Virus record (IMG/VR): IMGVR_UViG_3300045988_181891
Origin: a virus
Lineage: Duplodnaviria; Heunggongvirae; Uroviricota; Caudoviricetes
Strand: one strand, 5' to 3'
Length of the DNA: 44,845 nt
Every line of letters begins with the position of its first letter. Positions within the stretch are counted from its first letter, which is position 1. The translations under genes were made by a program, and so were the position numbers. Shown in pieces: positions 1,213-44,448 of this stretch. Under the pieces are notes generated by a model, which saw only the letters and a list, made by a program, of their open reading frames with translations, was not told where the DNA came from and did not search any database.

Positions 1213-1288
1213 CGCGGCGTGGAGCAGTTGGTAGCTCGCCAGGCTCATAACCTGGAGGTCGCATGTTCGAGTCTTGCCGCCGCAACCA
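1213..1288 (+). tRNA. tRNA-Met: tRNA-Met (anticodon CAT), initiator-type
   Basis: 76-nt cloverleaf folded by hand: acceptor CGCGGCG/CGCCGCA with C1-A72 mismatch, U8, D-loop AGTTGGTA, anticodon loop CTCATAA, T-loop TTCGAGT, encoded CCA; near-identical in layout to E. coli tRNA-fMet. Confidence 0.85.
1270..1286 (+). repeat. attL core, 17-bp direct repeat AGTCTTGCCGCCGCAAC within the tRNA 3' end
   Basis: Identical 17-mer at 44538..44554; imperfect similarity continues for about 55 bp downstream of both copies (atcgggta..aacattct..atccgatt). Confidence 0.8.
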
Positions 1289-1404: not shown

Positions 1405-2568
1405 ATGACTGCAAAAGAAATTGATTTTTTGAGCTCGCGTGAAATAGTAGGTTTCACGCTGCCTGTGTTGCATACCAAGGGCGGTTACTGGTATGTTGAC
1501 TTTACTGCCTTTGACCCTGTTTCGGGTCGGATGAAGCGCAAGAAATATATGCTTAATAGGTACAAGACTGACCACAAGAAGCGTATGATGGGTACCTTGC
1601 TTATCCACAATATCACGGCAAAATTGACCGCTGGATGGAATCCTTGGGTGAATGCCGACAAGTCGAGACAATTCACCGAAATACCAATTATCTTTAGTCG
1701 TTATCGTGATTATATTAAGTCGATGACCGACAAAAAGTCGATGAAGGAAAAGACCTCTATCGACTACCTCAGCCGCCTCAAGACTCTGGAGTCTTTCATC
1801 ACTGAGTGCAAGAGTGTCAAATATGCCTATCAGATTGACCGTGCCTTCGCCATCGACTTCTTAGACCACCTGATGTATGACCGTGATGTGAGTGCTACCA
1901 CAAGAAACAACTATCGCTCTTGGCTTGTCTCCTTCGGCACTTGGCTTATGGATAGAAAATATATCAGCGAGAACCCTGCCATCGACATCAGAAACATCGC
2001 TCAGAAGGAGAAGTTCAGAGACCCTTTGACCGAGGGCGCGCTTAAGAAGCTGAAGACTTATCTCTATGATAACAACAGACATTTTCTCTTGGCTTGCCTC
2101 TTTGAATATTATACCTTTATCCGACCGAATGAGTTGACGCAGATAAGAATCAAAGATGTGTCGATTGCTGACCAGACGGTCTTTATCAGTTCTGCCATCA
2201 GCAAGAACCGTAAGGACGGACTTGTGGCATTGAACGATGAAATCTTGAAGCTCATGATAGAGCAGAAGATATTTGAGCATCCGGGACATTGTTTTATCTT
2301 TGGCAAGGGGTTGAAGCCTGGTGAGGAGCGAGCACCTTATAACCAACTGAGAGTAGAGTGGGGCAAGATGCGAGATGCTATTGGGTTTCCGAAGGAGTAT
2401 CAGTTTTATAGCCTGAAGGACACTGGCATCAGGGATTTGGCGAACGCACAGGGTATCGTGGTCGCCAAGGATCAGGCACGCCACTCTGATATATCTGTGA
2501 CGAATCGATATATCAAGAACCAGATGAAAGTGAACGAGGAGACCAAGCACTTCAAAGGTGGGCTTTAG
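1405..2568 (+). CDS. int: Tyrosine recombinase (phage integrase), Bacteroidota-type with N-terminal arm-binding domain
   Basis: ATG at 1405; C-terminal catalytic region HxxR...Y (ARHSDISVTNRYI); position directly beside the tRNA attachment site. Confidence 0.9.
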   Translation: MTAKEIDFLSSREIVGFTLPVLHTKGGYWYVDFTAFDPVSGRMKRKKYMLNRYKTDHKKRMMGTLLIHNITAKLTAGWNPWVNADKSRQFTEIPIIFSRYRDYIKSMTDKKSMKEKTSIDYLSRLKTLESFITECKSVKYAYQIDRAFAIDFLDHLMYDRDVSATTRNNYRSWLVSFGTWLMDRKYISENPAIDIRNIAQKEKFRDPLTEGALKKLKTYLYDNNRHFLLACLFEYYTFIRPNELTQIRIKDVSIADQTVFISSAISKNRKDGLVALNDEILKLMIEQKIFEHPGHCFIFGKGLKPGEERAPYNQLRVEWGKMRDAIGFPKEYQFYSLKDTGIRDLANAQGIVVAKDQARHSDISVTNRYIKNQMKVNEETKHFKGGL

Positions 2569-4557: not shown

Positions 4558-7500
4558 TTATTTGTTTGACTTCATTTTTTGATATTGGCTCCATTGGCGG
4601 TCGAAGCCATCGGGGCCGGTGATGACCACGTATGACTTGATGCCAGCGTTGAGCTGCTCGTTGAGTCTGTCGATGGTGGTATGCACGCTATCGAGGGATG
4701 CGCCCATCTGCTCGGTGTCGCCACCTGAGACGTTGACCACTGGGGCGACCACGGCTGCGCTGCCTGTGCCCATGGCACGGCTCACGTCTTGGGCGGTGAG
4801 CGAGGCGACCGTGTTGTTGCGCTGCGCCATATCGATGAGCTGCAGGGCAGGGAGGAGCTGAGGATTGTTGACGGCGTTGTGGTTGGCGACGAACTCGCCA
4901 GCGTGAACCACGCCAGCCTCTTTCTTGTAATTGCCAGGACCAGTGAAACCACCCTCGTAATAGCCAGCCGCCTCTGCCTGGTGCTGCTTTTTGATTGTTG
5001 CTATCTGGAGCATGCCCGCTGCGGTGGCGAGACCTGCGGCGATAGGACCAAGGATGTGACCCACCACTGGGATGGCTGCGGCTGATGAGTAGGCGTTGAT
5101 GGCAGCCATGGCGGTTGAAGCTATGGCTTGTGCGATCTCTATCTTCATCGCCTTTTTGTTGGCCTTGCTCTTGGCTGCAGCCACCTCTTTGTCTCGCTTC
5201 GCCTCGAGACGCTTTTTCTTGGCTGAGTTGTTGCCAGCGGCAGAAATCTGCTTATCGTAGTTTTTCTCAATCTTGGCGACCTCTAGGTCTGAGCATGCCT
5301 GGGAGTAGGCGGAGGCAGCGCCCATCATCGTGTTGATGCTGCTGAAGGCAGCGCCAGCGATGGAGGCTATCTCTTGATAGGTCTCTTTGTTCATCTGCTT
5401 TTTGGCATCCTGGTATTGCTGCTCGCTGATTTTATCCTCGTCTCGAAGATTTTTGAGGTTATCGTTGACCATCTTTTGCTGTTGGATGGCTGCGATGGCA
5501 CCACCAGCGATTGTGGCGAGGTTGTCGCTGCCCATGGCATTGTTGCTGTCACCATTGCCCTTGGTCATCTTTTTGGCGGTGTCGAGGGCGGTGTTGGCAT
5601 CCTCCTTGCGCTGCTCATCGGCGGTTGGCTTGTATGAGGCGTATTTGTTGGCGATGCCCATCTTTGTGCGCTGGTATTCCTCCTCTCTGATGAGACCTGC
5701 CTTGTAGATGGCTTCGAGTCCCTGCAGATCTAGCTGCATCTGCTCTTCGTTGCCGAGCTTGCCGTATTCTTGGCGCAGCTGAAGGAGTTGCTCGTCGTGC
5801 TGCTTCTGAAGGTCGTATTTGCGTTGCTGTTGGGTCAGCTCTCGCTCTTTCTCGATCTGGGCATACTCGTCAGATGAGGAGAGGTAGAGGGCTTGCTTTT
5901 TGTTGAGATAGTCCTGGTATGAGAGGAAGAGAGCCTCGTTGACGGCATCCTCATTGTGATAGAGGTTGGAGTCTTTGTTGTAGTAATCGGCATTGAGCTT
6001 CATTTCTTTTTTCTGTCGCTCGGTCTCCAGGGCTTCGAGGTCGGCGGTCTGCTTTTTCTCGTAGTCGGCGGCGATATTCTCTTTCTCAGCGTTCAATCGC
6101 TTGAACTCTTCGCTCTCTGCCTCGCCATACTTTTTGAGGATGTCGAGGCGAGCCTGAAGCCCCTGTTCTTTGATATTCTTCATCTTCTCGTTGTATTCGG
6201 CGAGTCGAATCTGACCTGTAGCGTAGAGGGTCTTGGCATCGAGCTCTTCGGCTTGGTTGGCTTTCTTTGCATCGTCTAGCTCTTTTTTCATGTCAGCCTT
6301 GCGCTTAGCCTCTGCCTTGCGAGCGGCAGCCTCACGTTTCTTTTTCTCCTTTTCGGCAGCTTTGCGCTCTTTCTCGGTCATGGTATGACCAGAGGAAGGG
6401 GTGGTGTGTGTCTCTGTAGTTGCGCTATTGTTTAGTAAATTCTTCTTTACAGTCTTGTTGTACTGTTTCTGCAAATTTACGTTTTTCTCTAATTGCTGAT
6501 TATAGAAATTCTCTTCAGCATTGACTTGCTTTTGCAGGCTTAGGTTTGCCTGTAGTCTTTGCGTATGAACTTGCTTTTGCTTCTCGTTACTCTTCAGTGC
6601 CTCGTTTTGTTCGATGAGCTGACCTGTCCATCCATCAGCCACGGCATTGCTCTCATATTGCTTAGGATGAGCCTTGCGCTCAGCATCGACAGCCTTCAGC
6701 GAATATCGTATGCGGCTTTCTTTTTGTTTGAGTTCCAGTTTCTTTTTATTGATTTCCACCTTGCGCTCATAGATGGCTTCTGCCATGGCAGCATTTTCTA
6801 GCTCCTTGATGTAGTTTTGGATGGCAATCTGGTTGTCGTTATACAACTTGCCCTCTTTGGAGATAGAGGCGTGATATTCTGGGACGAGCTTTATCATATT
6901 TGCGATAGCTTGCTTTCGCTCGTCAACGGTATAGGCATTGGAGTGGATAACCTTGTTGAGCATATCGACCTTGTTGCGCTCATCGAGGGTAGCATCAGAC
7001 ACCTTTTTGGCGAGGCTGGCTTGAGCCTCTGCCACTGCTCTGTTGTTTTTAGCCTCTTGCGTGTTGTTGCGCATCGCCTCGTTGTAAGATGTTATGGCTT
7101 TGTATGCCCCATAGGCAGCCACGCCCACCACGGTGATGACTGTGGCGAGGGCAGCCCATGGATTGGTGAGACTTGCTAGGCGTGCTGCCCTCATCACCAC
7201 GATGTAGCCCTGTATGCCTTTTGTGAGATAAGCCCATGTGGCTTGCAGTGCCACTAAGGCAGCACGCAAGAGTGTAGATGTAGCGGTATAAGCTTTATCG
7301 ACAGCTGAAGCGTATTGTACGGCGGCTGTTTTAATCTTAATGGCGATGGTCTCCTTGTACCAGAGAGCAGTACAAACAGCGATGGCTGTTGACAGCACGG
7401 CTATTTGTTTTGCATAGGTGACGGTGAAGGTGATGAGCGTGGACATGACCTTTATGGTCAGACTGAATGATGTGATGCCATATTTCATGGCAGGGATGAG

Positions 7501-8904
7501 TTTTTCTCCGAGTTCGATGGTGAGGTCTTGGAATCGCTTCTTGGCTTTGTCTAGTTCTGCCTGTACCGTTGTATTCTGGGTATTGAACTCATTGATGACA
7601 CTGGTACCGTCGGCATACGACTTGGTGGCGATGTCTTGCGCCTCTTTCACTTGGTCGAGGTGTGTAGCCACGGCGGAGAGAACGCCCACGGCACGGGTGC
7701 CGTTAAGCTGCATCTCCTCAAACATCGGTGCCATCTCGGCGAAACCTCCCTTTGACTTCATCGCTTGCATGAACTTCATCAAGCCCTCATTGGCGTTGGT
7801 CTTCATCAGGTTGGAGAACTCCTTGACCTGCATGCCCGCTATCTTGGCGAACTTGGCTGGCTCTTGGTACATCTTGGTGATGAGCTGTGAGAAGACGGTG
7901 GCGGAAGTCGCCTCCTCTTGCATGTTTTGGTCGAGGGCAGAGGCGAGACCCATCAGCTGTGCCTGGGTCATGCCGGCCTGGATGCCGACACCTGAGAGGT
8001 CGGCGGTGAAATCGACGATGTAGCCAGCGTTTGCAGATGAGCTTTGTGCCAGCTCATTGACGGCGGAACCTGTGGCGAGCATCGCACCACGAAGGCCTTT
8101 GGTCTTATCCTCACCAAACATCTGGGCGAGCTTGCCGATTTTATCGACCGCCCCCTTGCCGAGGTCATCGCCGAGGGTGACATTGATTTTGTCGGCACCA
8201 TCAACGAACTCCTCGATCATCTCTTTGCTGGTGATGCCGAGGCGACCGGCAGAGCCAGCCAGCTCGTTGAGCTGCTCACGAGCTGTGCGGGTATCCATGC
8301 GCTTGAAGTCCTCGTTCATCTGATGAACCTGTTCGTCGGTCTGACCGGTGTATTTGCGCACGTCTGCCATCGACTCCTCCATGTCGGCATAGGCTTGGGC
8401 TGCAGCTCTCAAAGTAAGAGTGAGTGTGGTGAGACTGCCCAGTATCTGGGTGAAGGCACCCCAGTTTTTGTTAAGACCATCCCACATTCTAGAGAACAAA
8501 CTTCTGGAAGCTTTACCTTCGTCGTTGATGTGCTGCATCTCTGCTCGCACTTGCTTTAATTGCTTTTGCAGTTTTTTCCATTCGTCTGAGTTGCGCTTGA
8601 TGGCACCGCTTTTCAACTCTCTGTTGAGAGCCTTGGCGACTAGTTGCAGCTCCTTGTATGATGCAGAAGAAAGATTGTTGAGAACTTGGTTAACCTTCTC
8701 TTGGCTAGTCATGTATGCTTTTGTCTCAGCCTTTAATCTCTTTATCTGTCGTTCGAGGGCTGTTGTTGACTCGCCCTTTGCATAAGCCTCGTCTCTGGCT
8801 TTTTGCACTTCTTTCAGCTTGTTTTGCAATTCGTTGAGTTTATCCTTAGCCTCTTTGGTGTCAAGAATAACTCTGCTAACATGGGTATCTGTATTTGTTG
8901 CCAT
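4558..8904 (-). CDS. Tail tape measure protein
   Basis: 1448 aa; N-terminal TMP-type domain (NELAGSAGRLGITSKEMIEEF...), central hydrophobic helices, long charged coiled-coil regions; own promoter box upstream. Confidence 0.9.
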   Translation of the reverse strand: MATNTDTHVSRVILDTKEAKDKLNELQNKLKEVQKARDEAYAKGESTTALERQIKRLKAETKAYMTSQEKVNQVLNNLSSASYKELQLVAKALNRELKSGAIKRNSDEWKKLQKQLKQVRAEMQHINDEGKASRSLFSRMWDGLNKNWGAFTQILGSLTTLTLTLRAAAQAYADMEESMADVRKYTGQTDEQVHQMNEDFKRMDTRTAREQLNELAGSAGRLGITSKEMIEEFVDGADKINVTLGDDLGKGAVDKIGKLAQMFGEDKTKGLRGAMLATGSAVNELAQSSSANAGYIVDFTADLSGVGIQAGMTQAQLMGLASALDQNMQEEATSATVFSQLITKMYQEPAKFAKIAGMQVKEFSNLMKTNANEGLMKFMQAMKSKGGFAEMAPMFEEMQLNGTRAVGVLSAVATHLDQVKEAQDIATKSYADGTSVINEFNTQNTTVQAELDKAKKRFQDLTIELGEKLIPAMKYGITSFSLTIKVMSTLITFTVTYAKQIAVLSTAIAVCTALWYKETIAIKIKTAAVQYASAVDKAYTATSTLLRAALVALQATWAYLTKGIQGYIVVMRAARLASLTNPWAALATVITVVGVAAYGAYKAITSYNEAMRNNTQEAKNNRAVAEAQASLAKKVSDATLDERNKVDMLNKVIHSNAYTVDERKQAIANMIKLVPEYHASISKEGKLYNDNQIAIQNYIKELENAAMAEAIYERKVEINKKKLELKQKESRIRYSLKAVDAERKAHPKQYESNAVADGWTGQLIEQNEALKSNEKQKQVHTQRLQANLSLQKQVNAEENFYNQQLEKNVNLQKQYNKTVKKNLLNNSATTETHTTPSSGHTMTEKERKAAEKEKKKREAAARKAEAKRKADMKKELDDAKKANQAEELDAKTLYATGQIRLAEYNEKMKNIKEQGLQARLDILKKYGEAESEEFKRLNAEKENIAADYEKKQTADLEALETERQKKEMKLNADYYNKDSNLYHNEDAVNEALFLSYQDYLNKKQALYLSSSDEYAQIEKERELTQQQRKYDLQKQHDEQLLQLRQEYGKLGNEEQMQLDLQGLEAIYKAGLIREEEYQRTKMGIANKYASYKPTADEQRKEDANTALDTAKKMTKGNGDSNNAMGSDNLATIAGGAIAAIQQQKMVNDNLKNLRDEDKISEQQYQDAKKQMNKETYQEIASIAGAAFSSINTMMGAASAYSQACSDLEVAKIEKNYDKQISAAGNNSAKKKRLEAKRDKEVAAAKSKANKKAMKIEIAQAIASTAMAAINAYSSAAAIPVVGHILGPIAAGLATAAGMLQIATIKKQHQAEAAGYYEGGFTGPGNYKKEAGVVHAGEFVANHNAVNNPQLLPALQLIDMAQRNNTVASLTAQDVSRAMGTGSAAVVAPVVNVSGGDTEQMGASLDSVHTTIDRLNEQLNAGIKSYVVITGPDGFDRQWSQYQKMKSNK

Positions 8905-9367: not shown

Positions 9368-9552
9368 ATAATAATATTTGGAATATGCAAGTATTTTGTG
9401 TTAAATCTTTGATTTGTTTTGCGGTATGGTGGAAAAATATTATATTTGCAGTGGCAATTTAATTTTAGAAAGTATGAATAAAGATTTTGCTTTAATATTG
9501 GTAAACATAATATGCGCCTTAACGGCATTTGTTTGTATGATAATCACTATTG

Positions 9553-9909
9553 TTATTTCATTAGTGAGATTATAATAGTAATACACATAGATGCGATTGT
9601 AATAATCGTGCAAATGATATTGATATATTCTTTGTATTCTTTCAGAAGTGTCAGTCTCTCCTGTCTTCTCTTCTGTTTGTTATAGCCTTTCTTGGCAGCA
9701 TTCTCCCCTTGTGGTGTCAGCTTATAATAAGCTTCTCCCCACTCATAAACAAGTCCCTCGTCTTGAAGTGATTGTAGAACATCGTATGGCTCAATGTCAT
9801 ATCCATACGTATCATTTATAGCACTGTGTACATCGTCTTTGTTAGGACTACCTTCTAAGAACTGGCTTAAAATGAAATCTGCGATTTCTATTTGCTTTTT
9901 AGTCATCAT
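9553..9909 (-). CDS. Hypothetical protein with C-terminal transmembrane helix
   Basis: Start chosen at the tandem ATG (MMTKKQIE...); the ORF-track start at 9993 is GTG; promoter box upstream. Confidence 0.45.
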   Translation of the reverse strand: MMTKKQIEIADFILSQFLEGSPNKDDVHSAINDTYGYDIEPYDVLQSLQDEGLVYEWGEAYYKLTPQGENAAKKGYNKQKRRQERLTLLKEYKEYINIICTIITIASMCITIIISLMK

Positions 9910-10044
9910 AATCAAATAAAAACGGCTCGTGCATCGGGAGGGCAGTCCTTCAGCACGAGCCATTAACAGCTGTATATCTTTATGTCTTGCCACTCATGAG
10001 ACCTGCCCGAATCATGTTTGACATCATTGTCTTTAAATATGGTG

Positions 10045-10052
10045 CAAAGATA
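10045..10052 (-). promoter_or_regulatory. -7 promoter box TAtcTTTG (minus strand)
   Basis: Plus strand reads caaagata. Confidence 0.4.
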
Positions 10053-10092
10053 GCGCTTTTATCTGAATGCACCAAATGATTTTACGAAAACT

Positions 10093-10704
10093 TTATTTCA
10101 CCACCTCTATGTATCTCGAGTAATCAATCTTGGAGTGGGGATTGTGGCTGACTATCTGCACCTGATAGCCCTTGGTGCCCCATCGCCACCAGAGGAACTT
10201 GTGGCGGTAGGTGCGGCTCACGATGGTCGTCAGGCTGTCTCGAGACGAGTACTGGCACTCTCGCTTGGGGATGTCGATATGGAGGGAGAGCCATTGGTCT
10301 CGGTAGGTGTAGATGGAATCGGGGATGCCGGAACCAGCCACGGCGGCGGTCGGTTCGGGCGTGAGATAGACCGTATCGGCGGTGGTTGACGAAACTGTGT
10401 GGATAGACTGCACATCTTTGAGCCGCACTTTGAGGTCTTTGATGAGCTTGGTATCGGCGAGGTGGAGCTTTTGCAGCTCGTCGTATTTCGACTGAAGGGC
10501 GTTGAATATGGCGACATTGAGAGTGTCTCTCACGTTGGCATATTCAATGTCGTAGTTGAGGTTGGCTACGTTGTAGCTCTGTCGGTCGAGGTCTGCCTGA
10601 AGCTGCTCGCACTTGTTGGCGGAGTGTATGAATGCGACTGCGGTCACGATGAGCAGGGCTGCCAGAAGCTGGATGATAATCTTGGGTGTAATCTTTTTTG
10701 TCAT
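10093..10704 (-). CDS. Membrane-anchored coiled-coil protein, spanin-like lysis accessory candidate
   Basis: ATG at 10704 (MTKKITPKIIIQLLAALLIVTAVAF...); N-terminal TM helix then coiled coil; directly follows the amidase gene. Confidence 0.45.
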   Translation of the reverse strand: MTKKITPKIIIQLLAALLIVTAVAFIHSANKCEQLQADLDRQSYNVANLNYDIEYANVRDTLNVAIFNALQSKYDELQKLHLADTKLIKDLKVRLKDVQSIHTVSSTTADTVYLTPEPTAAVAGSGIPDSIYTYRDQWLSLHIDIPKRECQYSSRDSLTTIVSRTYRHKFLWWRWGTKGYQVQIVSHNPHSKIDYSRYIEVVK

Positions 10705-10733
10705 TGTCTTTTTGAAAATGATTGGTGAGTGAG

Positions 10734-11159
10734 TTATGCGATGTCTTTGTATTCGTCGATGGCATTGAAGCAAGGACACATCTTCTTCCATTTGGACTTG
10801 TCCTTGCCCCAGATGTCACGATGGCCCATTATCTGGGCATCTGGGAATTGTTGCTTCAGTTTGTGGAGTAGCAAAACGAGGGCGTCTTTTTGCTCTGGTG
10901 TGCGGTTGTCGATAGCCTTGCCCTTAGCGTCGATGCCACCGATATAGGCGACGTTGATGGCTGTGGAGTTGTAGCCCTGCACGCCGTTGCTCACCTTTTC
11001 GATGGCTAGGAGTTGGTGGATGCCGCCGTTTGGGGCGATGACGTAGTGATAACCTGGATTGGTCCAGCCCTTGCGGCGGAACTCTGCCTTGAGGTCGTCG
11101 ATGGACTGGCTTTGCGACCCTGCGGTGCAGTGAACGAAAATGCGTTTAATCTGTCTCAT
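10734..11159 (-). CDS. N-acetylmuramoyl-L-alanine amidase endolysin (Amidase_2/PGRP, T7-lysozyme-like)
   Basis: Zn-ligand pattern H (IFVHCTAG), H (MGHRDI), C (CPCF) plus GYHYVI and NVAYIGG motifs; internal ATG at 11159. Confidence 0.85.
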   Translation of the reverse strand: MRQIKRIFVHCTAGSQSQSIDDLKAEFRRKGWTNPGYHYVIAPNGGIHQLLAIEKVSNGVQGYNSTAINVAYIGGIDAKGKAIDNRTPEQKDALVLLLHKLKQQFPDAQIMGHRDIWGKDKSKWKKMCPCFNAIDEYKDIA

Positions 11160-11400
11160 TATTTTGCTTGTTATGATTGAACAATTTGTTTTTGATGTTG
11201 TCGAACTTGGCATCGATGGCGATGGCTACGCCGAAGATGGAGCCGGCATACATGAGCGACTGGGCAAAGTACCAGAGCACATTGTCGGTGACATCACGAG
11301 CCTGGGAGGTGAAGTAACTGATGTAAACCAGTATGATGGCGAGGAGGAGCACGGCGATGGCTGAGCCGTATTGTATCCATTCTTTAGTATTTCTCTGCAT
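11146..11400 (-). CDS. Holin-like small membrane protein
   Basis: 84 aa from ATG at 11400 with two hydrophobic helices; immediately upstream of and overlapping the amidase gene; ORF-track start 11430 is TTG. Confidence 0.55.
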   Translation of the reverse strand: MQRNTKEWIQYGSAIAVLLLAIILVYISYFTSQARDVTDNVLWYFAQSLMYAGSIFGVAIAIDAKFDNIKNKLFNHNKQNNETD

Positions 11401-11427
11401 GGTGAATCTTGTTTTTGTTTTACAGTG

Positions 11428-11435
11428 CAAAGATA
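11428..11435 (-). promoter_or_regulatory. -7 promoter box TAtcTTTG (minus strand) for the lysis cassette
   Basis: Plus strand reads caaagata; about 25 nt upstream of the holin ATG. Confidence 0.45.
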
Positions 11436-11449
11436 AGAAGGGTAGGGTG

Positions 11450-11487
11450 ATAATAAAAATACGAGACCGCCCTAACGATCTCGTATT
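11450..11487 (-). terminator. Rho-independent terminator (minus strand)
   Basis: 9-bp stem AATACGAGA / TCTCGTATT with 12-nt loop, followed on the minus strand by TTTTTATTAT. Confidence 0.5.
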
Positions 11488-11500
11488 ATATGTTTAACTG

Positions 11501-11908
11501 TTAGACCTCTCTTGAGAGAATCTCCTTGGCTATCTCTTTGGCCTCTTTGCGCCACGACTGATAAGCCTCGAACTCTGCCTCGTGAGTCTCGTCGCCATCG
11601 CCACGGTTGGCTAGGATGGCCTCTACCTGGTTTTGGCTGTATCGGGTGCGAACCAAACCAGCGGTGAAATCGTCGTAGGTGGCTGCGGTCGCCTGAATCT
11701 TGGTCGAGCCATCAGGCTCTGTGCCCTCATAGCTGTAAGCAGTGACACCCTCGGAGTTTTCATCTTCTGACTGCTCTGAGGTATCGGAAGAGCCTGTAGC
11801 GGCCTCAGGGTGATAGTTTTCAACTTTCTGCTCACCAGTGTAGAGCAGATAATGGTTATCGTCATATTTGACGAAGCTCTTGCGAGCTAGATAATACTTC
11901 TTGTTCAT
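11501..11908 (-). CDS. Hypothetical acidic protein downstream of the DGR RT gene
   Basis: ATG at 11908; 135 aa; no recognisable motif. Confidence 0.55.
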   Translation of the reverse strand: MNKKYYLARKSFVKYDDNHYLLYTGEQKVENYHPEAATGSSDTSEQSEDENSEGVTAYSYEGTEPDGSTKIQATAATYDDFTAGLVRTRYSQNQVEAILANRGDGDETHEAEFEAYQSWRKEAKEIAKEILSREV

Positions 11909-11914
11909 AATTGA

Positions 11915-13558
11915 TCACGTGAATTTATAGAACTTCTTTTTGAATTTATTGTGAAGCTCTGCGACCACGGTGGAGAAGGGTAGCTCATCACGACAGAAGT
12001 CGTTGAGGGCTTGGTCTATCAAGATCTTGGAGCCTGTATAGAGGTAGTGCTCCAGAGGTTGCCATACCTCGGTGCCGTCTGGCTCCAGGTGGTCGATGAT
12101 GCGATAGCGTAGGGAGAGGCGCTTCTTGGGCACCTCTTTGGTGACCATGTGGGTGGAGCCGTCCGGGGCGGTCTCCTCTTGCTGGATGGTCTCCTTCTCT
12201 ATCACCGAGTCATCGACCTTGTAGTCTATCACTTGAACGAGGAACTTGTTCTCGTCCTGACCCTCACGGCAGATGATGTCCTCGATGGACTGCTGCTGTG
12301 ATTTCTCCATACCGTCAAAAGGCACGCGCGCACGGCGAGCCTTGACGAGTTTACCGAATCTTTCCATACCGATTTTCTTATATAAGTTTTTAGAGTTTGC
12401 GTGGATGCCCAGACCTAGGCGAGAGGCTGCCTTGAGCTGTATCTGGCGGTCTGTGAAGCCCGCCTTGCGTAAGTTGGCGATCTGTCTGCAGAGGTCGTGC
12501 TTGAACCGCTTGCGCAACAGGGCGTGGTCGGCGTAGATGATCTGACCGCATAAGTCGATGCCATCGCAGGTGCGGTGGATACCCCAAGACTTATTGATGG
12601 ATAGGTGCCAGTCACGGGCGAGGTGCATCACGGCAAGCTCTGCCATCAGCCTGAGGAACACCTTATCCTCGTGGAGGATGTAGATGTTGTCCATGAAGCG
12701 GTAATAATGGCGAAGACCTTGGCGGCAGAAGCGCTCGAACCTATCGTTGAGCGACTTCACTCCCCCGCATAGCAGTTGAGCTTGCTGCTGAGTGCGACAG
12801 GTAACGAGCATGTCGCTCACGTAGCGAGCCTGCCAGTAACGGAACTTGTCGGTGTCTTGGAGAATGTCGAAGCATCGGAGTGCCAGGTAATCGAAGCGGG
12901 CGAGGAAGAGCTGACCCAAGAGTTGGGCGAGCTTGACGCCGAGCACGATGCCTGGATTGAAGCTATCGACCACCTCGTCGATGAAGGCGAGGAGCTTGCG
13001 GTCTTTGATCTTGCGGCGATATTCACTTTTGAGAAGAGCGTGGTCTATGCTCTGAAAATAATGGTGAATATCCATGGGCAAGCAGTAGAAGGTATCTTGC
13101 TGTGGCGAGTTGAAGATGTCTCGCTTGACAAGATTATAGAAATAATGGGTGCCCTTGCCCTTGGAACCAGCCGGACTGTGGCTGTAGAGTGTCTTGCGAA
13201 GGTTATCCTCTACAGGTTGCAGGGCAGCGTGCTGGATGACGTGGTCGATAACGGGCAGCTTGTTGACTTGGCGATGTTTTGGATAGTCGATATCTTTGGC
13301 GACATAGGCTGAGGTATGCCAAGTTTGTTGGGTGTAAGCATCGAGCATGCGTCCGATGTTATGGTCTAGGTTTGCCTCGAATTTTTGGACCGCACGGCGA
13401 GACATCTTTTGTCGGGCGTAGTCATAGAATGCCCGACGAAAGTTGTCTAGTGTCTCGACCTGTAGCGATATGTTGCCAAACCTTTTCATAAGCGGTGTAA
13501 TGTCTGTGTTGAACGGTGTATAAACTGTGTATAGTCTGAATCGTCTGCTTTTGTACAC
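11915..13558 (-). CDS. DGR reverse transcriptase-like protein with non-canonical motif C
   Basis: RT motifs recognised by eye: HVIQHAALQPV, SPAGSKGKGTHY, LPMDIHHYFQSIDH, GVKLAQLLGQLFL; sits just downstream of the template repeat; ORF-track start 13558 is GTG, first in-frame ATG is at 13489. Confidence 0.8.
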   Translation of the reverse strand: MYKSRRFRLYTVYTPFNTDITPLMKRFGNISLQVETLDNFRRAFYDYARQKMSRRAVQKFEANLDHNIGRMLDAYTQQTWHTSAYVAKDIDYPKHRQVNKLPVIDHVIQHAALQPVEDNLRKTLYSHSPAGSKGKGTHYFYNLVKRDIFNSPQQDTFYCLPMDIHHYFQSIDHALLKSEYRRKIKDRKLLAFIDEVVDSFNPGIVLGVKLAQLLGQLFLARFDYLALRCFDILQDTDKFRYWQARYVSDMLVTCRTQQQAQLLCGGVKSLNDRFERFCRQGLRHYYRFMDNIYILHEDKVFLRLMAELAVMHLARDWHLSINKSWGIHRTCDGIDLCGQIIYADHALLRKRFKHDLCRQIANLRKAGFTDRQIQLKAASRLGLGIHANSKNLYKKIGMERFGKLVKARRARVPFDGMEKSQQQSIEDIICREGQDENKFLVQVIDYKVDDSVIEKETIQQEETAPDGSTHMVTKEVPKKRLSLRYRIIDHLEPDGTEVWQPLEHYLYTGSKILIDQALNDFCRDELPFSTVVAELHNKFKKKFYKFT

Positions 13559-13697
13559 TTGATAACCTTCGACCGGATGACCGTGTTGTCATCATCTACC
13601 AGCTGTCTTATTAATGTGTATGTATCGCCATGGGGCGAGGATTGACCCTGTAATCTCGAAGTGGGAGCAAACGACCCACGAAGAGATATGTCTGTAA

Positions 13698-13819
13698 GTT
13701 GAGGGCGGCGCCGTAGTTCACATTGGCATTCGAGACAGCATTGTTCACGTTGAGCGTTGAAAGACCGCATTGACCACCATTGTTAGCGTTAGCACCACGA
13801 AGGCAGACACGAAAACCGG
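13698..13819 (-). repeat. DGR template repeat (TR), non-coding
   Basis: 122 bp matching 14109..14230 with 10 mismatches, all at TR adenines (plus-strand T); the ORF 13611..13832 is a translation of the TR, not a gene. Confidence 0.9.
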
Positions 13820-13853
13820 CACCTAGGGTCACACCCTGGTATCATAACCGCCG

Positions 13854-13861
13854 CAAAGGTA
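13854..13861 (-). promoter_or_regulatory. -7 promoter box TAccTTTG (minus strand) directly upstream of the TR
   Basis: Plus strand reads caaaggta, about 35 nt upstream of the TR. Confidence 0.45.
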
Positions 13862-14057
13862 ATAAAAATAATCGGTATGGAAGCATGTCAAAGAGCTTTT
13901 TTGATGTTTTTATTGATATTTTTTTTGTCGCCGACCGCCACAGGCGGTAACTTAAGGCGAGCTACGCTCGCTGGGTGCTTCGGCTTCGCCGAGGGTGCTC
14001 AGGTCTCTTTTGCACACCCAGTAAACCGATGCACACCCAGCAAACTGATGTAGTCTC

Positions 14058-15530
14058 TTAGGCCGCCTCGTAATACACGGGTTCAACGGACCACTCGGAT
14101 GCTGCTTCGCAGAGGGCGGCGCCGTAGTTCACATCGGCAATCGAGACAGCACTGCTCACGTCGAGCGTTGAAAGACCGCATCGACCACCAAGGTTAGCGT
14201 TAGCACCACGAAGGCAGACACGAAAACCGGATGTAGCACCAGACGTATTCCAGAAATAGCTAGTCCAGTAGGTTGACTCGGATGCGCCCGTAGCGGTCGG
14301 GAAGTTCTCTAGATGCTCCATCGAGAGCGTCTTGATATAGCCTTCGCCCTTGGTCGGCGAGGTGCTGTAAGCCACCATGCCATCGGTGGAACCTATCGTC
14401 CACGTGCCGTAGATGGACGGTGCCACGAGATGGGTCACGGAAGTGTCCTCGTTGCAACGCACCTGCTCGTCATCCATGTGTCGCCACAATAAGCCGAAGC
14501 CATTTTTGTAGCCGAAGAAGGATGGTATCTTGGCGGTATAGACCACGGTGCCATCGTCTTTTTTGACCTCGTAGCTCGCCTCGCCGCAAGCGTCGCCAAG
14601 CTCGATGCCAGCCGACATCGGCACGACAGGGCGATAGCCGTTGTAACCACCCCAATCAGGCATCTGTGTCACGCCAGCGCCGAGACCACCCTGGTAGAGA
14701 CCGTTGGCATCTTTTTGGCTGTTGACGGCATCCTGGTCGTAGTGGGTGCCGAAGATGACCCCGAAGAGCACGGAGATGGCAGAGGTGTGGCGCATGGTGG
14801 TGCAGAGCCAGCCTGTGCCGTTTTTGCGGGCAGCAGCACGCCAGTATTCGGTAGTCTGGTTGGTGGCAGCCTTGCCCAGCATGGTGCGGTTGGTGTTATC
14901 TAACGTGGAGTCGTTGTTGCCGCCTCGGTAGTTTGTGCCCTCGTTGATGTAGCTCACCAGCTTGCCTGTGCTGCGCTCTAGCGTGGCGAAGCCAGCGGCG
15001 GAGATGCTGCCCACAGGTATCTTGTAATTGTACTCGCCTGGTATCGGCGTAGGGCTGACCATCTCGTAATGGAGTCTGCCCACGGTCTTGATGACCATGT
15101 ACCACTCCTTGCCCCAGCCCCACTGGTAGTGCCCCTCTGAGCCATCGAGCTTGGCTGTCTCGCCGGTGGCATACTTGTGGTGGTCTTTGGAGTCGAGCTT
15201 GCGACGGGAGTGGTCATTCTTGACCAGATAACAGCCCAGACCCAGCTCCGTTGGTAGGGTCTGCAGTAACTCTAGCGAGCCCACATAAGTGGCGGCTTTA
15301 GGGGTTGCATTGTCGAGGTTCCACACTCGACCACACCAAGGATGCTGTCCCATTTGGACGGCGCTTTTGAGCGACATCTGCTCAGACCTGCCGGATTTTT
15401 TGTCGAAGACCTCGACAATCTTGTCAGTGGCGCTCATGTCTGACTGTGGGAGGTCGTCAACCTGTTGACCTCCATCGAAAGCGGCTATGATAGCCTTGAG
15501 CTTACTCTCTTCTTCTGATGTTAATGCCAT
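14058..15530 (-). CDS. DGR target protein, putative receptor-binding structural protein with C-terminal variable region
   Basis: 490 aa from ATG at 15530 (ORF-track start 15578 is TTG); VR occupies the C-terminus; GFRVCLRG segment resembles the C-type-lectin/FGE-like fold of known DGR targets. Confidence 0.8.
   Translation of the reverse strand: MALTSEEESKLKAIIAAFDGGQQVDDLPQSDMSATDKIVEVFDKKSGRSEQMSLKSAVQMGQHPWCGRVWNLDNATPKAATYVGSLELLQTLPTELGLGCYLVKNDHSRRKLDSKDHHKYATGETAKLDGSEGHYQWGWGKEWYMVIKTVGRLHYEMVSPTPIPGEYNYKIPVGSISAAGFATLERSTGKLVSYINEGTNYRGGNNDSTLDNTNRTMLGKAATNQTTEYWRAAARKNGTGWLCTTMRHTSAISVLFGVIFGTHYDQDAVNSQKDANGLYQGGLGAGVTQMPDWGGYNGYRPVVPMSAGIELGDACGEASYEVKKDDGTVVYTAKIPSFFGYKNGFGLLWRHMDDEQVRCNEDTSVTHLVAPSIYGTWTIGSTDGMVAYSTSPTKGEGYIKTLSMEHLENFPTATGASESTYWTSYFWNTSGATSGFRVCLRGANANLGGRCGLSTLDVSSAVSIADVNYGAALCEAASEWSVEPVYYEAA
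14109..14230 (-). repeat. DGR variable repeat (VR) inside the 3' end of the target gene
   Basis: 122-bp copy of the TR; encodes ...GFRVCLRGANANLGGRCGLSTLDVSSAVSIADVNYGAAL..., ending 17 codons before the stop at 14058. Confidence 0.9.
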
Positions 15531-15552
15531 AATAAAAATTATATTTAATCGA

Positions 15553-16317
15553 TTAAACAATGCGTAATTTATCACCAACTTTTCTAAGCTTGCCCGATGC
15601 CGACAGGCGAAGGCGAGGCTGGCGCACGGTGATGCTGACCTCTTGCCAGAGCGGTGTGTTGGCGGTGGGGATGACCCAGAACTTGGTGGTGCCCTCGCCC
15701 TTGATGATGAGGTTGCCGCTTGGGTCTGCCACGAGCGAGTCGCCCTCGGCTCGCTGGAAGAGCACGCTCTGAGGGAGGTAGCTCGGCAGGATCTGCACGG
15801 CGATGCGCAGAGCCACCTTGTTGCGTAGGCTTATCTCGGGGAGATAGGTCAGGTTCATGCGAGCTGGCGCGATGAAGCCTGTGGTTATCTGAGCGGCGAG
15901 ACCATCCATCTGCGCTATCTTGGCATCGGCTCGCTTGGATGCCGCGTCAGCCTCTGCAGCCTTGGTCTCTGCCAAGGCTGCCTGTGATGCTGCAGCCTCG
16001 CCCTGCTCGCCAGCCGCCTTGGCTGCGCTCTGGGCGAGGTTAGCCGCCTTGTTGGCATCGTCGGCCGCACCCTGCGCTCTGACGGTCGGTGTCTTGTCGA
16101 GCCACAAGCGCCACTTGGCGTTGGTATCTGAAGGAGTCGTCGTGTTGCCATCCTCTAGGGAGGCGAAGACTCCTGACGATGTGTGAACGATGTCGCCCTC
16201 GTCGTAGCCCTTGACGGTCTGGCCATCCTCATCTTGATAGGAGTAGCCCGACTGCCAGGTGCCCTGGTCGGTGAAGGCGACATTGCCCACGATAATGATG
16301 TTTGTGTTATCTGCCAT
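15553..16317 (-). CDS. Hypothetical structural protein with Ala-rich coiled region
   Basis: ATG at 16317; 254 aa. Confidence 0.55.
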   Translation of the reverse strand: MADNTNIIIVGNVAFTDQGTWQSGYSYQDEDGQTVKGYDEGDIVHTSSGVFASLEDGNTTTPSDTNAKWRLWLDKTPTVRAQGAADDANKAANLAQSAAKAAGEQGEAAASQAALAETKAAEADAASKRADAKIAQMDGLAAQITTGFIAPARMNLTYLPEISLRNKVALRIAVQILPSYLPQSVLFQRAEGDSLVADPSGNLIIKGEGTTKFWVIPTANTPLWQEVSITVRQPRLRLSASGKLRKVGDKLRIV

Positions 16318-16323
16318 AATGAT

Positions 16324-17166
16324 TTATACTTTAATGACTAACTTGTTTCTGCGCTTGACAACGTGTTCAGCGACATGACTGCCGTAGTCGATCATGAGGA
16401 GTTTGTTGCGCCGTTGACGGAACGCCGGATACATGGCACCGCCTCGGGCGATGACTCCTGTATCGACATAGGTGTGCTTGGAGAGATCCCACTGCCACCA
16501 GTTGCCGTTGTCGCCCATCTTGGGTGGATGGTCGTTGAGCTCCTGGGCTAGGTTGGTCTGCTTCTCGCTCTCGGTGAGGGCTGTGAGCGTATCATCGATG
16601 CGCTTGTTCTCGGCGGTGACACGACCCGCCTCGGCGGCTATGCGAGCATTTTCGGCTGTCGCTCGCTTGATCTCTGAATCCATGCGAGCTTGCTCTTGGG
16701 ACTGTCGGGTCTGCTCGGCAGCTTGTCTCTTGGCCTCGTTGCTCTCAATGGCAGCCTTGGAAGAGAGCGTGGCTTCGGTCGCCTGTTTGGCAGCCTCGGT
16801 CTGCGACTTGCTGGCACTGACCGCATCCTCTACCTTTTTGCGTTCGGCGGTGAAGTCAGTTGTCGCCTTGTTGACGCTAGCCGCCGCATCGTTGGCTTTG
16901 CCAGCTGCGGTGTTGGCCTCCTCTGTCGCCTGTTTCGCCTCCTCGATGCGGATATCCACATCTTTAGTCAAGAGTGACAGCGGTGCGATGACTTGCTTTT
17001 GCACACCGTCTTTGCTGTAGAGGGCGGGCATCGTACTGATGCCATCGAGCGAGGTGGCGAGCTCGCAAGAGAAGATGTTCTTGCTGTGCCGCTGTAGATA
17101 TTCGTTGAACTTAGGTAAGAGCCGGGCGCATAGCGCCTCGAACTCTGTGTCATTCTCTATGCCCAT
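16324..17166 (-). CDS. Hypothetical structural protein with central coiled coil
   Basis: ATG at 17166; 280 aa. Confidence 0.55.
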   Translation of the reverse strand: MGIENDTEFEALCARLLPKFNEYLQRHSKNIFSCELATSLDGISTMPALYSKDGVQKQVIAPLSLLTKDVDIRIEEAKQATEEANTAAGKANDAAASVNKATTDFTAERKKVEDAVSASKSQTEAAKQATEATLSSKAAIESNEAKRQAAEQTRQSQEQARMDSEIKRATAENARIAAEAGRVTAENKRIDDTLTALTESEKQTNLAQELNDHPPKMGDNGNWWQWDLSKHTYVDTGVIARGGAMYPAFRQRRNKLLMIDYGSHVAEHVVKRRNKLVIKV

Positions 17167-17169
17167 AGG

Positions 17170-17466
17170 CTATGATTTTAAGATGTCCTGTTTCCACTCG
17201 GCAATCTTGGCGAAGACAGCCCCTGCCTCTTCATCGCTCAGCACGGCAGTGTTGATGCGACATGAGAGGTTGGTATCCATAAAGCTGATGTATCCAGCAC
17301 CGCTCTCGGAGGCTGGTGCATCATCTTTGGACTCTGTACGTTTATAGACCTCACCGGAAAAAGAGACCTTGTCATCTCGCTTTGTCTTGGTGAACTTGAC
17401 GAAAACGCCTGTAACAACCTCAATCTCCTGGATGTCGGTTGTCGTAACTGTTGACTCTACCTTCAT
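17170..17466 (-). CDS. Hypothetical small protein
   Basis: ATG at 17466; tightly packed with neighbours. Confidence 0.5.
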   Translation of the reverse strand: MKVESTVTTTDIQEIEVVTGVFVKFTKTKRDDKVSFSGEVYKRTESKDDAPASESGAGYISFMDTNLSCRINTAVLSDEEAGAVFAKIAEWKQDILKS

Positions 17467-17468
17467 AA

Positions 17469-17771
17469 TTAATCTTGCTCTATTAGTTTAACAATCTGAC
17501 AATATACCCCTGGCACCAAGGAAGCCTTGGCGACCTCTTTGATCATGGTTAAGTCTTCGGTCGTACACTCGACCTCACTTGGTTTAGTGTGCATCTGCAC
17601 ACTCAGGTTGTAGGCTCTCTTAAGAGACTCATCATCAGCCTTGACGCTGTTATTGCTTCCGTTGAACAGATGAAGTCCGAGCACCTCATTCATCATCTGA
17701 GGCTGTCCGTTGCTGTCTGTCATCACCCCGCCCCTGTAGTTACGGATGGCGACCTTAAAATTTCTTTTCAT
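17469..17771 (-). CDS. Hypothetical small protein
   Basis: ATG at 17771. Confidence 0.5.
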   Translation of the reverse strand: MKRNFKVAIRNYRGGVMTDSNGQPQMMNEVLGLHLFNGSNNSVKADDESLKRAYNLSVQMHTKPSEVECTTEDLTMIKEVAKASLVPGVYCQIVKLIEQD

Positions 17772-44070: not shown

Positions 44071-44448
44071 ATGTTTAATGGTCAGATAATCAGAAAGTTA
44101 ATGTCGGATGCTGGCTTAACTAAAAAAGAGTTTGAAAGACGTATGTTCGGTAGTAAATCGACCGACCTCAACCATTTGGAAAAAGCGAAGAATCTTCGCA
44201 GTGACACTCTCGAACGTCTGCGTGAGGTGTTGAAGTGCTCTATGGATGACTTCTTTACAGCACCCTCATGGGCTGAGAACGGAAAGGGGACAGTCGTAGG
44301 CTCTAACAATGTGCTGTCAACAGTAGCCATCGGCAACGAAGTGATGGAAGCCCAATATCTCAAGGAGTTGCTCTTGGAGAAGGACAAACGCATCAGCACT
44401 TTGGAAAATTATATCAAGCTTCTGGAGACTAACTTAAATAAGGACTAA
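44071..44448 (+). CDS. XRE-family HTH transcriptional regulator (putative prophage repressor)
   Basis: HTH region GLTKKEFERRMFGSKSTDLNHLEKAKNLRSDTLERLREVL; divergent arrangement across a 120-bp AT-rich switch region. Confidence 0.7.
   Translation: MFNGQIIRKLMSDAGLTKKEFERRMFGSKSTDLNHLEKAKNLRSDTLERLREVLKCSMDDFFTAPSWAENGKGTVVGSNNVLSTVAIGNEVMEAQYLKELLLEKDKRISTLENYIKLLETNLNKD

Follow-up and report, generated by a model that had tools for sequence, protein, structure and literature searches.

The window analysed here, a stretch of 44,845 nucleotides from a Caudoviricetes phage (IMG/VR record IMGVR_UViG_3300045988_181891), carries a tyrosine integrase adjoining tRNA-Met and belongs to an integrase-type temperate phage, whose host is a gut Bacteroidales, probably Prevotella-like. 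The first-pass annotation had proposed a diversity-generating retroelement (DGR) in a "prophage structural region", which is a reasonable description, and each component that it named is present: a template repeat (TR), a variable repeat (VR) inside a tail-protein gene, and a gene for a reverse transcriptase (RT). The features are collected in Table 1.

Table 1. Features of the DGR cassette in the window, with positions counted from the first nucleotide.
Feature	Position	Strand	Description	Basis
Small acidic ORF, 135 aa, pI 4.6	11501..11908	-	Starts 6 nt past the RT stop; syntenic throughout the family	
DGR RT, 524 aa	11915..13489	-	phrog_1423; bRT is the best match	Sequence and fold
Spacer RNA, Rfam RT-17 (RF03020)	13541..13642	-	Between TR and RT	cmscan
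TR	13698..13819	-	Non-coding, invariant, 25 adenines	Alignment, strand-aware tabulation
Putative promoter box	13854..13861	-	TACCTTTG on the minus strand, CAAAGGTA on the plus strand	Read from sequence
VR	14109..14230	-	Codons 434-474 of the target; diversified codons 444-469	
VR 3' boundary	14109..14123	-	GC-rich GGCGCCGCCCTC, then fixed TGC (Cys474); AAC in the TR	
Target gene, 490 aa	14058..15530	-	Phage tail/receptor-binding-type variable protein, modelled C-type-lectin fold	phrog_5302, AlphaFold model

TR and VR had been described as 122-bp direct repeats with 10 mismatches, and a recount by alignment at an offset of 411 gave the same result. Strand-aware tabulation placed 10/10 mismatches at a plus-strand T (minus-strand A) of the TR and 0/97 at other positions, as first claimed; on the plus strand the changes from TR to VR are T>C (six), T>A (three) and T>G (one). 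With 25 T in the TR, the chance of 10 random positions all falling on T is P = 2.4e-8. Homology breaks off sharply on each side, again in agreement with the earlier reading, and an independent repeat search recovered a 119-bp core (13701-13819 / 14112-14230) of 93% identity. The only TR codons changed in the VR are AAC, AAT and CAA, and every change is nonsynonymous.

Not all 10 mismatches can be credited to mutagenesis, as had been supposed. The 3'-terminal AA>TG pair (13699-13700) is seen in both VR alleles of the element and in every related locus; on this comparison it is a fixed boundary difference (Cys474), so that the mutagenic mismatches number 8/10. All five distinct loci read "...CTC TG(C/T) GAA" in the VR and "...CTC AA(C/T)" in the TR, and Cys474 is fixed in 14/15 members of the 90%-identity cluster of the target. 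The GC-rich GGCGCCGCCCTC together with the fixed TGC (VR) / AAC (TR) difference fits an IMH/IMH* pair and would represent a putative IMH-like mark of directionality. Small stems are possible 3' of the VR in the five loci, with fold energies no better than those of shuffled sequences (z -1.5 to +1.5), and the BPP-1-type hairpin in this position has no supported counterpart in the window element. Pooling of five distinct elements of the family gave 57 mismatches, all at adenines, with 0/487 non-A positions changed (P = 6e-49) and ~50% of the TR adenines altered; in the family-wide pool, 67/134 A sites differ versus 0/583 non-A sites.

The VR lies near the C-terminus of its target as proposed, but it is not the last ~40 codons of the gene, since 16 codons separate its end from the stop. 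Identities for target and RT were obtained from PHROGs, a PDB sequence search and a fold search, Pfam being silent on both. The target matched phrog_5302 "tail protein" (6.8e-57), and a Pfam search at E up to 10 returned no match. Its AlphaFold model (pLDDT 89.6, pTM 0.85) found TaqVP (5vf4, E 1.3e-6) as the best PDB entry, followed by Mtd (1yu0-4, E ~1e-3) and then FGE-like C-type-lectin folds; in this model the 490-aa protein takes the form of a DGR variable protein with a C-type-lectin fold. Among the 15 cluster members, hypervariability is limited to adenine-containing codons, namely 444, 446, 447, 450, 455, 457, 459, 460, 464, 466, 468 and 469, with 4-9 residues per column.

The RT-like gene had been given as 11915..13558. 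Its product is a bRT-like RT, but the start is the ATG at 13489 and not the GTG at 13558: homologues begin MKR..., and the GTG-extended frame would overlap the RT-17 RNA. A profile search, which the first-pass annotation had suggested, identified phrog_1423 RT (7.8e-52), and bRT (8ub7) was the top match by both sequence and fold (model pLDDT 84), so the RT fold is present. Pfam, searched at E up to 10, gave no family match, RVT_1 (PF00078) included; a precomputed PF00078 match exists for a minority of the homologues, and TIGR04416 scored 35 bits against a 300-bit cutoff. Motif A contributes D140, and motif 4 (LGVKLAQ) follows the [I/V/L]GxxxSQ signature, "AQ" being among the variants listed by DiGReF (PMC3521204). 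R73, D140, L183, G184, Q189 and D267 are invariant in the homologues; R73 is equivalent to bRT R74 and L183/Q189 to bRT I181/Q187 (adenine-mutagenesis determinants of bRT).

The enzyme departs from the DGR pattern in motif C, where RFMDN stands in place of YxDD and Asn268 replaces the second catalytic Asp. RFMDN aligns to bRT RYMDD at maximal posterior probability, and D267 and N268 are unchanged in 32 homologues. Asn at 268 is constant over a clade of 38-92% RT identity, its codon being either AAC or AAT, so that the residue has been kept through synonymous codon change, and a dN/dS of 0.059 for the gene indicates purifying selection. The RT is also lengthened by an insertion of ~50 aa that separates motifs 4 and 5 and by a beta-rich C-terminal domain of ~125 aa, a profile of which retrieved nothing from the PDB. 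A 7,945-aa adhesin (P0267) with 53 matches to profile positions 471-514 was judged a compositional/repeat artefact. Proteins of the same long architecture with DD were found as sisters, and a search of the window for a second RT (tblastn with Hankyphage and crAss RTs; family HMM versus six-frame translation) found none.

The TR was correctly described as intergenic with its own TAccTTTG box: it lies within a non-coding gap of 568 bp, and the box TACCTTTG, which we take to be a Bacteroidota -7-type promoter box, is 34 nt upstream of it. TAnnTTTG recurs 34-45 nt upstream of the TR in 4/5 distinct related loci (the window, L005, L009 and L010), while L008 has TACCTTCG; the box is a putative promoter of a TR-spacer-RT transcript. 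Between TR and RT, 52 nt upstream of the RT ATG, cmscan placed the Rfam RT-17 motif at 59.9 bits (gathering threshold 40.4) over model positions 1-95 of 95. The same motif occupies the same place in L001, L005, L006, L007 and L013 (60-73 bits), and its P1 hairpin shows compensatory changes at three pairs, the distant loci L009 and L010 included. In BPP-1, the "Sp"/RT-10 region positions and primes cDNA synthesis. The RT-17 spacer is presumed by analogy to be its counterpart, and a role in priming would follow from this comparison.

An ORF of 124-135 aa (pI 4.5-4.7) directly follows the RT in L005, L007, L009, L010, L012 and L013, and the cassette keeps its gene order even where RT identity falls to 38%. 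The window copy gave no match in Pfam or the PDB; it could encode an accessory factor, or else be a phage gene unrelated to the DGR. The accessory protein Avd occurs in >70% of DGRs and is essential in BPP-1. No Avd was found near the cassette with Pfam and NCBIfam on the small ORFs and a profile-versus-PDB search on the downstream ORF. The acidic ORF was not called Avd, as it has no Avd matches and a pI of 4.6 versus a mean of 9.5 for Avd proteins (PMC5758913). The layout is that of "Architecture A" of Wu et al. 2018, TG-TR-RT without avd or other accessory genes, which accounts for 29% of 372 DGRs (PMC5758913).

Comparison of the VR across copies, also suggested at the outset, gave the most direct evidence for diversification. 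The window and the independent contig L012 share 7,989 aligned bp with 12 differences, all of them confined to VR sites where the TR has an adenine (P = 3.7e-32), TR and RT being 100% identical. L007 and L008 likewise have identical RT and TR and different VRs, and every xDN element examined (five distinct, 38-92% RT identity, different samples) has a diversified VR. By this comparative evidence, the DGR is currently active, and each refuting condition set in the first-pass annotation turned out to favour a DGR.

We put the probability at about 85% that the element is a functional DGR with an accessory-gene-less TG-TR-RT architecture in a temperate gut Bacteroidales phage, with the xDN RT as its most likely polymerase. 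The TAccTTTG promoter would drive a transcript containing the 122-nt TR, the RT-17 spacer RNA and the RT ORF; the RT would bind this transcript, copy the TR into cDNA and misincorporate at roughly one in two template adenines. The restriction to adenines can be read directly from the repeats, and the enzymology is modelled on the homologous bRT. The VR of the tail-protein gene would then be overwritten by the cDNA as far as the GC-rich 3' boundary (TGC/AAC), a replacement pattern visible in the alleles. Twelve codons would be recoded on the ligand-binding face of the C-type-lectin fold, presumably shifting receptor specificity. Catalysis by this RT is not guaranteed, because its second catalytic Asp is Asn; the xDN enzyme is nonetheless most likely the working polymerase, because the element is active, as its VR alleles demonstrate, and encodes no other RT. 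With less confidence, we favour the broader view that a clade of gut-phage DGR RTs is functional in vivo with Asn for the second YxDD Asp (consensus R-F-x-D-N), without Avd, with a long RT (insertion and C-terminal beta domain) and with RT-17.

A duplicated gene fragment shaped by ordinary mutation and diversifying selection on a receptor-binding loop, with no retroelement involved, might be considered for this repeat pair, as diversifying selection is frequent on tail-fibre tips and short repeats arise through duplication. Selection cannot, however, restrict changes to template adenines (0/583 versus 67/134 in the pooled family), the untranslated copy does not vary from one strain to another, and a bRT-like RT with an RT-associated structured RNA lies directly downstream in every relative; we regard this account as having a negligible chance of being correct. 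A DGR that retrohomed in the past and is now inactive, with Asn as a sign of RT decay, is also very improbable. Past and present activity look alike in a single genome, and the odd catalytic box and the missing Pfam match superficially resemble decay, but Asn268 is invariant in the 32 homologues despite synonymous codon change under the dN/dS given above. Moreover, the window and L012, which match at 100% across ~8 kb apart from the VR, have 12 differing adenine sites within it, L007 and L008 repeat this on a shared RT and TR, and the target cluster is hypervariable at A-containing codons.

The remaining alternative accepts the DGR and assigns the FMDN protein the role of a dead pseudo-RT scaffold for RNA binding or targeting, the cDNA being made in trans by a YxDD RT from the host or a co-resident element. 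It owes its appeal to the residue itself, which is held to be essential: both YxDD aspartates are 100% conserved in 155 DGR RTs in DiGReF (PMC3521204), HIV-1 and MoMLV RTs are reported to be inactivated by mutation of either Asp in work cited in PMC554778, and the long-architecture DD sisters could in principle complement. Such an arrangement would require a compatible helper in each host, since the VR is diversified in all five distinct xDN elements, and the window encodes no other RT. A scaffold would have no need of the invariant R73, L183 and Q189 (dNTP-contacting, adenine-mutagenesis), nor of D140 and D267, and the RdRps of Mononegavirales have GDN at the equivalent position. Ty1 RT with the engineered D211N substitution is also polymerase-active in vitro, with a 223-fold lower kpol and a preference for Mn2+ (PMC2148107). 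We therefore consider the scaffold reading unlikely, although better placed than the other two, and retain the functional DGR with the xDN RT as polymerase.

Compared with the paradigm BPP-1 DGR (mtd-avd-TR-brt), the window element differs in having no detected Avd, in its RT (524 aa versus 328 aa, ~22% identity), which has the motif 4-5 insertion and the C-terminal domain, in motif C (FMDN versus YMDD) and in the spacer RNA (RT-17 versus RT-10). Extensions of up to 150 aa past the thumb occur in ~20% of DGR RTs (PMC5758913), and the absence of Avd and the C-terminal RT extension are variations already documented.

Hankyphage (Bacteroides phage p00), for which DGR activity has been demonstrated experimentally (PMC12135933), resembles the window phage in being temperate, in its gut Bacteroidales host group, in promoter type and in the order of target-VR, TR, structured RNA, long RT (434 aa) and acidic small ORF. 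It differs in its canonical YCDD (~22% identity over residues 1-373), an RT-3 spacer RNA, a small basic ORF annotated as Avd between VR and TR, a target of >2,000 aa (490 aa here) and a Mu-like transposable lifestyle, versus the tyrosine integrase by tRNA-Met in the window. A C-terminal RT domain shared by both phages is a weak lead: MAFFT aligned a common ...Y(K/I)FT end, which is suggestive, but BLASTP gave E 1.4.

The text of the Wu et al. 2018 DGR survey does not mention a departure from YxDD (PMC5758913), and among open-access papers and bioRxiv preprints we found a natural xDN-type RT motif in nematode Belpaoviridae alone and none for DGRs. The RTs of this lineage (Cer7-13, Atlas virus) have a conserved natural YVDN with the same Asp-to-Asn change (PMC9094657), and the activity of the YVDN enzyme was described as "to be determined" (PMC554778). 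Both Belpaoviridae and Ty1 belong to the LTR retroelements of eukaryotes, which are not related to DGRs. D211N abolishes transposition of Ty1 in vivo, whereas the VR alleles seen here record a working retroelement in vivo.

Apart from its RT, the element is a typical DGR, and its presence in a phage of gut Bacteroidales is expected biology. DGRs are abundant in gut Bacteroidales phages, with Hankyphage and crAss-like examples published. The new part is the enzyme, in which Asn is fixed under strong purifying selection, yet the full DGR signature is present: ~50% of adenines changed, all other bases untouched, and new alleles set in otherwise identical sequence. If the clade-wide reading is true, this would be a natural and selectable demonstration, in vivo, of a catalytically competent xDN RT. 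It would also suggest that a very slow active site, perhaps one that prefers Mn2+, is tolerated or even exploited by DGRs, in line with a proposed link between adenine mutagenesis and low catalytic efficiency (PMC7826257). The element would offer a tractable bacterial system for the role of the second carboxylate, which is also at issue in the nematode YVDN retroviruses, and would allow asking whether a reduced catalytic rate feeds adenine mutagenesis. Several DGR screens use Pfam PF00078 as a first filter; because this RT is invisible to it, part of the DGR diversity in gut phages may be missing from their counts. RT-17, an orphan family in Rfam, also gains a biological context as a DGR TR–RT spacer.

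When the plus strand was aligned with itself at a 411-nt offset, a block of identity ran from 13698 to 13819 (template repeat, TR) against 14109 to 14230 (variable repeat, VR), with sharp edges and unrelated flanks at both ends; a 119-bp core of this pair was also recovered by an independent repeat search. TR and VR differ by 10 mismatches within 122 bp, each falling on a plus-strand T of the TR, an A on the minus (coding) strand: T>C six times, T>A three times, and T>G once. The TR contains 25 T, and none of its 97 remaining positions is changed in the VR (P = 2.4e-8 for 10 random positions all landing on T). The first-pass annotation, which had described a 122-bp repeat with 10 adenine-only mismatches, was therefore accurate on realignment and strand-aware counting. 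Its placement of the VR at the very end of the target gene holds only in part: the VR lies in frame near the C-terminus of the 490-codon target ORF (14058..15530, minus strand; codons 434–474) but stops 16 codons short of the stop codon. Where codons are changed, the TR has AAC, AAT, or CAA, and all changes are nonsynonymous.

Eight of the ten mismatches can be attributed to mutagenesis. The other two form a terminal AA>TG change: directly after a GC-rich run, the 3′ end of the VR reads “...CTC TG(C/T) GAA” against “...CTC AA(C/T)” in the TR in all loci. It encodes Cys474, which both alleles of the window element share and which is also fixed in 14 of 15 members of the target's 90%-identity cluster and nearly throughout the family; this makes AA>TG a constant difference between VR and TR rather than a product of mutagenesis. 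By analogy with IMH and IMH* in the Bordetella phage BPP-1, it would mark where information transfer ends. No hairpin like that of BPP-1 is supported 3′ of the VR: fold energies there are no better than those of shuffles.

A contig of an independent assembly (L012, ENA ERZ28571175) encodes an identical RT and aligns without gaps to window positions 9512..17489 over 7,989 bp with only 12 differing positions. The 12 fall without exception within the VR (14129..14200), each at a TR-adenine position, while the TR is 100% identical; the chance probability of this placement is 3.7e-32. Two further contigs, L007 and L008, likewise share identical RT and TR and carry different VRs. The target's 90%-identity cluster has 545 members, and among the 15 read out, columns with 4–9 different residues occur at codons 444, 446, 447, 450, 455, 457, 459, 460, 464, 466, 468, and 469; all twelve have adenine-containing TR counterparts, and variation outside them is sparse and mostly biallelic. 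The annotation had named identical, invariant repeats in relatives as one observation that would speak against a diversity-generating retroelement (DGR); the VRs instead differ among relatives and, compared as sequences, record recent, repeated mutagenic retrohoming.

Two irregular alleles were noted. The L007 VR (L007 6325..6452) has a 2-bp insertion relative to its own TR and the L008 VR, which leaves the called target ORF with 452 instead of 474 aa, and is either a frameshifted allele (e.g. a retrohoming error) or a mixed-population assembly error. In P0398 (502 aa), from the target's 90% cluster, the ORF continues into unmutated TR-encoded sequence and then spacer (“...GAALNLQTYLFVGRLLPLRDYRV...”); on its contig the VR is joined to the TR and the ~290 bp between them are deleted, through either assembler collapse of the repeats or genuine VR–TR recombination.

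The target matches PHROG 5302, “tail protein.” Its structural model (pLDDT 89.6, pTM 0.85) finds the DGR variable proteins TaqVP (E 1e-6) and Mtd (E ~1e-3) as best PDB matches, followed by C-type-lectin folds like those of formylglycine-generating enzymes. Together, the context genes listed below indicate an integrase-type temperate phage or prophage.

Reverse transcriptase (RT) and phage context genes of the window
Feature	Coordinates	Strand	Length
RT	11915..13489	-	524 aa
tRNA-Met	1213..1288	+	
Tyrosine integrase	1405..2568	+	
PhageMin_Tail tape-measure protein	4558..8904	-	
Amidase	10734..11213	-	
Terminase-like protein	31630..33231	-	
Clp-type prohead protease	37195..38220	-	
Repressor-like protein	44071..44448	+	

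The tRNA-Met is directly upstream of the integrase, GC falls to 0.40 in the first 2 kb, and the repressor-like ORF is at the opposite window end, which suggests either integration of a prophage at tRNA-Met or an attP-permuted phage contig. MAGs of Prevotella, Bacteroidaceae, and Rikenellaceae and human faecal viromes supply homologues of target and RT; DGRs are already known from gut Bacteroidales phages, both temperate and lytic (PMC6199706, PMC12135933, PMC8143477).

The RT has no Pfam match even at E = 10, matches PHROG 1423 “reverse transcriptase” at 8e-52, and has the BPP-1 DGR RT (bRT; 8ub7, 2e-10) as its best PDB-sequence match. About 200 close homologues of 510–550 aa were detectable with full-length coverage, most without a precomputed Pfam domain, and DGR screens starting from PF00078 (e.g. 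PMC6199706) would miss this clade. Gene order is conserved in loci at 66%, 51%, 39%, and 38% RT identity: a 450–490 aa target, a ~500-bp gap, the RT, and a 124–135 aa ORF. Every locus with enough flank has a TR/VR pair of 114–126 bp with all mismatches at TR adenines. Six pooled pairs give 67 of 134 adenines changed (A>G 33, A>C 18, A>T 16) against 0 of 583 other positions (P = 6e-49 for adenine restriction in five distinct elements), a density of ~50% that agrees with BPP-1 and Bacteroides DGRs (10.1101/2024.11.15.621889; PMC7826257). One 7.3-kb contig (L013, Logan SRR23294291) has a 92%-identical RT, with which the small downstream ORF stays, then a 255-aa ORF and SusD/RagB-type genes, without the lysis and tail genes that follow the cassette in the window; this cassette may lie where a prophage ends, or may have another genomic setting.

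The catalytic box of the RT departs from the canonical one. Motif C reads R-F-M-D-N, aligned to R-Y-M-D-D in bRT.

Residues of the window RT and their bRT counterparts
Window RT	bRT	Role	Basis
D140	D138	Motif A carboxylate	bRT alignment
R73	R74	Promotes adenine mutagenesis (PMC7826257)	bRT alignment
L183	I181	Promotes adenine mutagenesis (PMC7826257)	bRT alignment
Q189	Q187	Motif-4 signature, last residue	bRT alignment
D267	D215	First Asp of YxDD	bRT alignment
N268	D216	Second Asp of YxDD	bRT alignment

In an alignment of 32 family members (38–92% identity), D267 and N268 are invariant, with the consensus R-F-[M/A/V]-D-N. Asn268 is encoded by AAC in most loci but by AAT in contig L005, adjacent codons vary synonymously, and dN/dS is 0.059 between the window RT and a 92%-identical relative (dS is saturated for more distant pairs). 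This invariance, synonymous variation, and dN/dS identify the Asn as a selected state and not as decay of the RT. In an exhaustive profile search of 1.84 billion representatives, with 501 hits at E ≤ 1e-30, the long architecture was confined to about a dozen full-length 50%-identity clusters, beyond which matches are ordinary 320–460 aa DGR RTs. Long RTs with Asn (DN) include P0241, P0243, P0244, P0247, P0250, and P0262, and those with the second Asp (DD) include P0245, P0246, P0248, and P0251. Because the main DN clade is nested among DD forms in a rough NJ tree, with the Hankyphage RT (YCDD) just outside, DN is derived; it may have more than one origin. About 20% of DGR RTs are extended at the C-terminus, by up to 150 aa (PMC5758913). 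A giant repeat adhesin (P0267, 7,945 aa) gave 53 matches to profile positions 471–514, in the RT C-terminal domain (residues ~400–524), its repeat “Y.A.SGNTVVLTQAGADLVNSGADLPTFTV” loosely resembling “Y.YTGSKILIDQALNDF..DELPFSTVV”; the similarity is probably compositional, though it might hint at the fold of this domain.

Mutating either Asp inactivates HIV-1 and MoMLV RT, as noted in PMC554778, and the mutagenesis could be ascribed to a helper RT supplied in trans. We consider this unlikely. No second RT was found in the 44.8-kb window by tblastn with two canonical phage DGR RTs or with the family HMM against the six-frame translation. As the element is active, this is the sole RT in the phage, and the other active-site residues are all conserved, we infer that the xDN RT itself is active. 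Ty1 RT D211N is still an active polymerase in vitro, though its kpol is 223-fold lower and it prefers Mn2+ (PMC2148107). The inefficiency of bRT-Avd has been called “a property likely intimately tied to” adenine mutagenesis (PMC7826257), which by analogy makes a further-slowed xDN active site plausible in a DGR. Both aspartates were 100% conserved in 155 DGR RTs (PMC3521204), and the later large surveys that were consulted do not discuss the catalytic motif. In targeted literature searches, the nematode Belpaoviridae were the one group with the Asp to Asn substitution, as YVDN (PMC9094657); whether it is compatible with activity is there called “to be determined” (PMC554778). A clade-wide xDN box in RTs of demonstrably active DGRs is thus apparently undescribed.

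No small ORF near the cassette matches Avd, nor has any other Pfam or PDB match. The ORF that always follows the RT starts 6 nt past its stop in the window and has a pI of 4.5–4.7, against a mean of 9.5 for Avd proteins; avd-less cassettes make up 29% of DGRs (PMC5758913). The window element is a genuine DGR that fails the “defining” YxDD feature and lacks the common but non-universal Avd.

The spacer between TR end (13698) and RT ATG holds a full-model match to Rfam RT-17 (RF03020; 13541..13642, minus strand; 59.9 bits against a gathering score of 40.4), found at the same position in five related loci with 60–73 bits. The GTG start at 13558 proposed earlier was replaced by the ATG at 13489, since homologues begin MKR... 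and the extension overlaps this structured RNA. The RNAalifold consensus has compensatory changes at three pairs of the first spacer hairpin, also present in two distant loci without an RT-17 match; the Hankyphage DGR differs in having RT-3 at this position. RT-1 to RT-19 were described as motifs near RT genes by Weinberg et al. (PMC5737381), who linked only RT-10 to a DGR (the BPP-1 TR–RT spacer) and speculated that other RT motifs might serve other DGRs. The window locus supports this idea for RT-17, whose assignment to a DGR spacer is apparently undescribed.

On the minus strand, TACCTTTG precedes the TR by 34 nt. Of five distinct loci, four have a TAnnTTTG box at 34–45 nt ahead of the TR and the fifth has TACCTTCG; going by what is established for promoters of that phylum, we take the box to be a putative Bacteroidota −7 promoter element. 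An 18-nt inverted repeat (12362..12379 and 13865..13882; 89% complementary, arms 1,485 nt apart) has one arm directly upstream of this box and the other in the RT gene at codons ~371–376; L005 likewise has “TTCCATACC(G/A)AT” ahead of its TR promoter, and the arm may be an upstream promoter element or a chance match. A 19-bp direct repeat occurs in tandem at 14011..14048 (TGCACACCCAGTAAACCGA / TGCACACCCAGCAAACTGA), in the non-coding gap just past the target stop (minus strand) and upstream of the TR promoter; it could bind a protein or belong to a terminator region.
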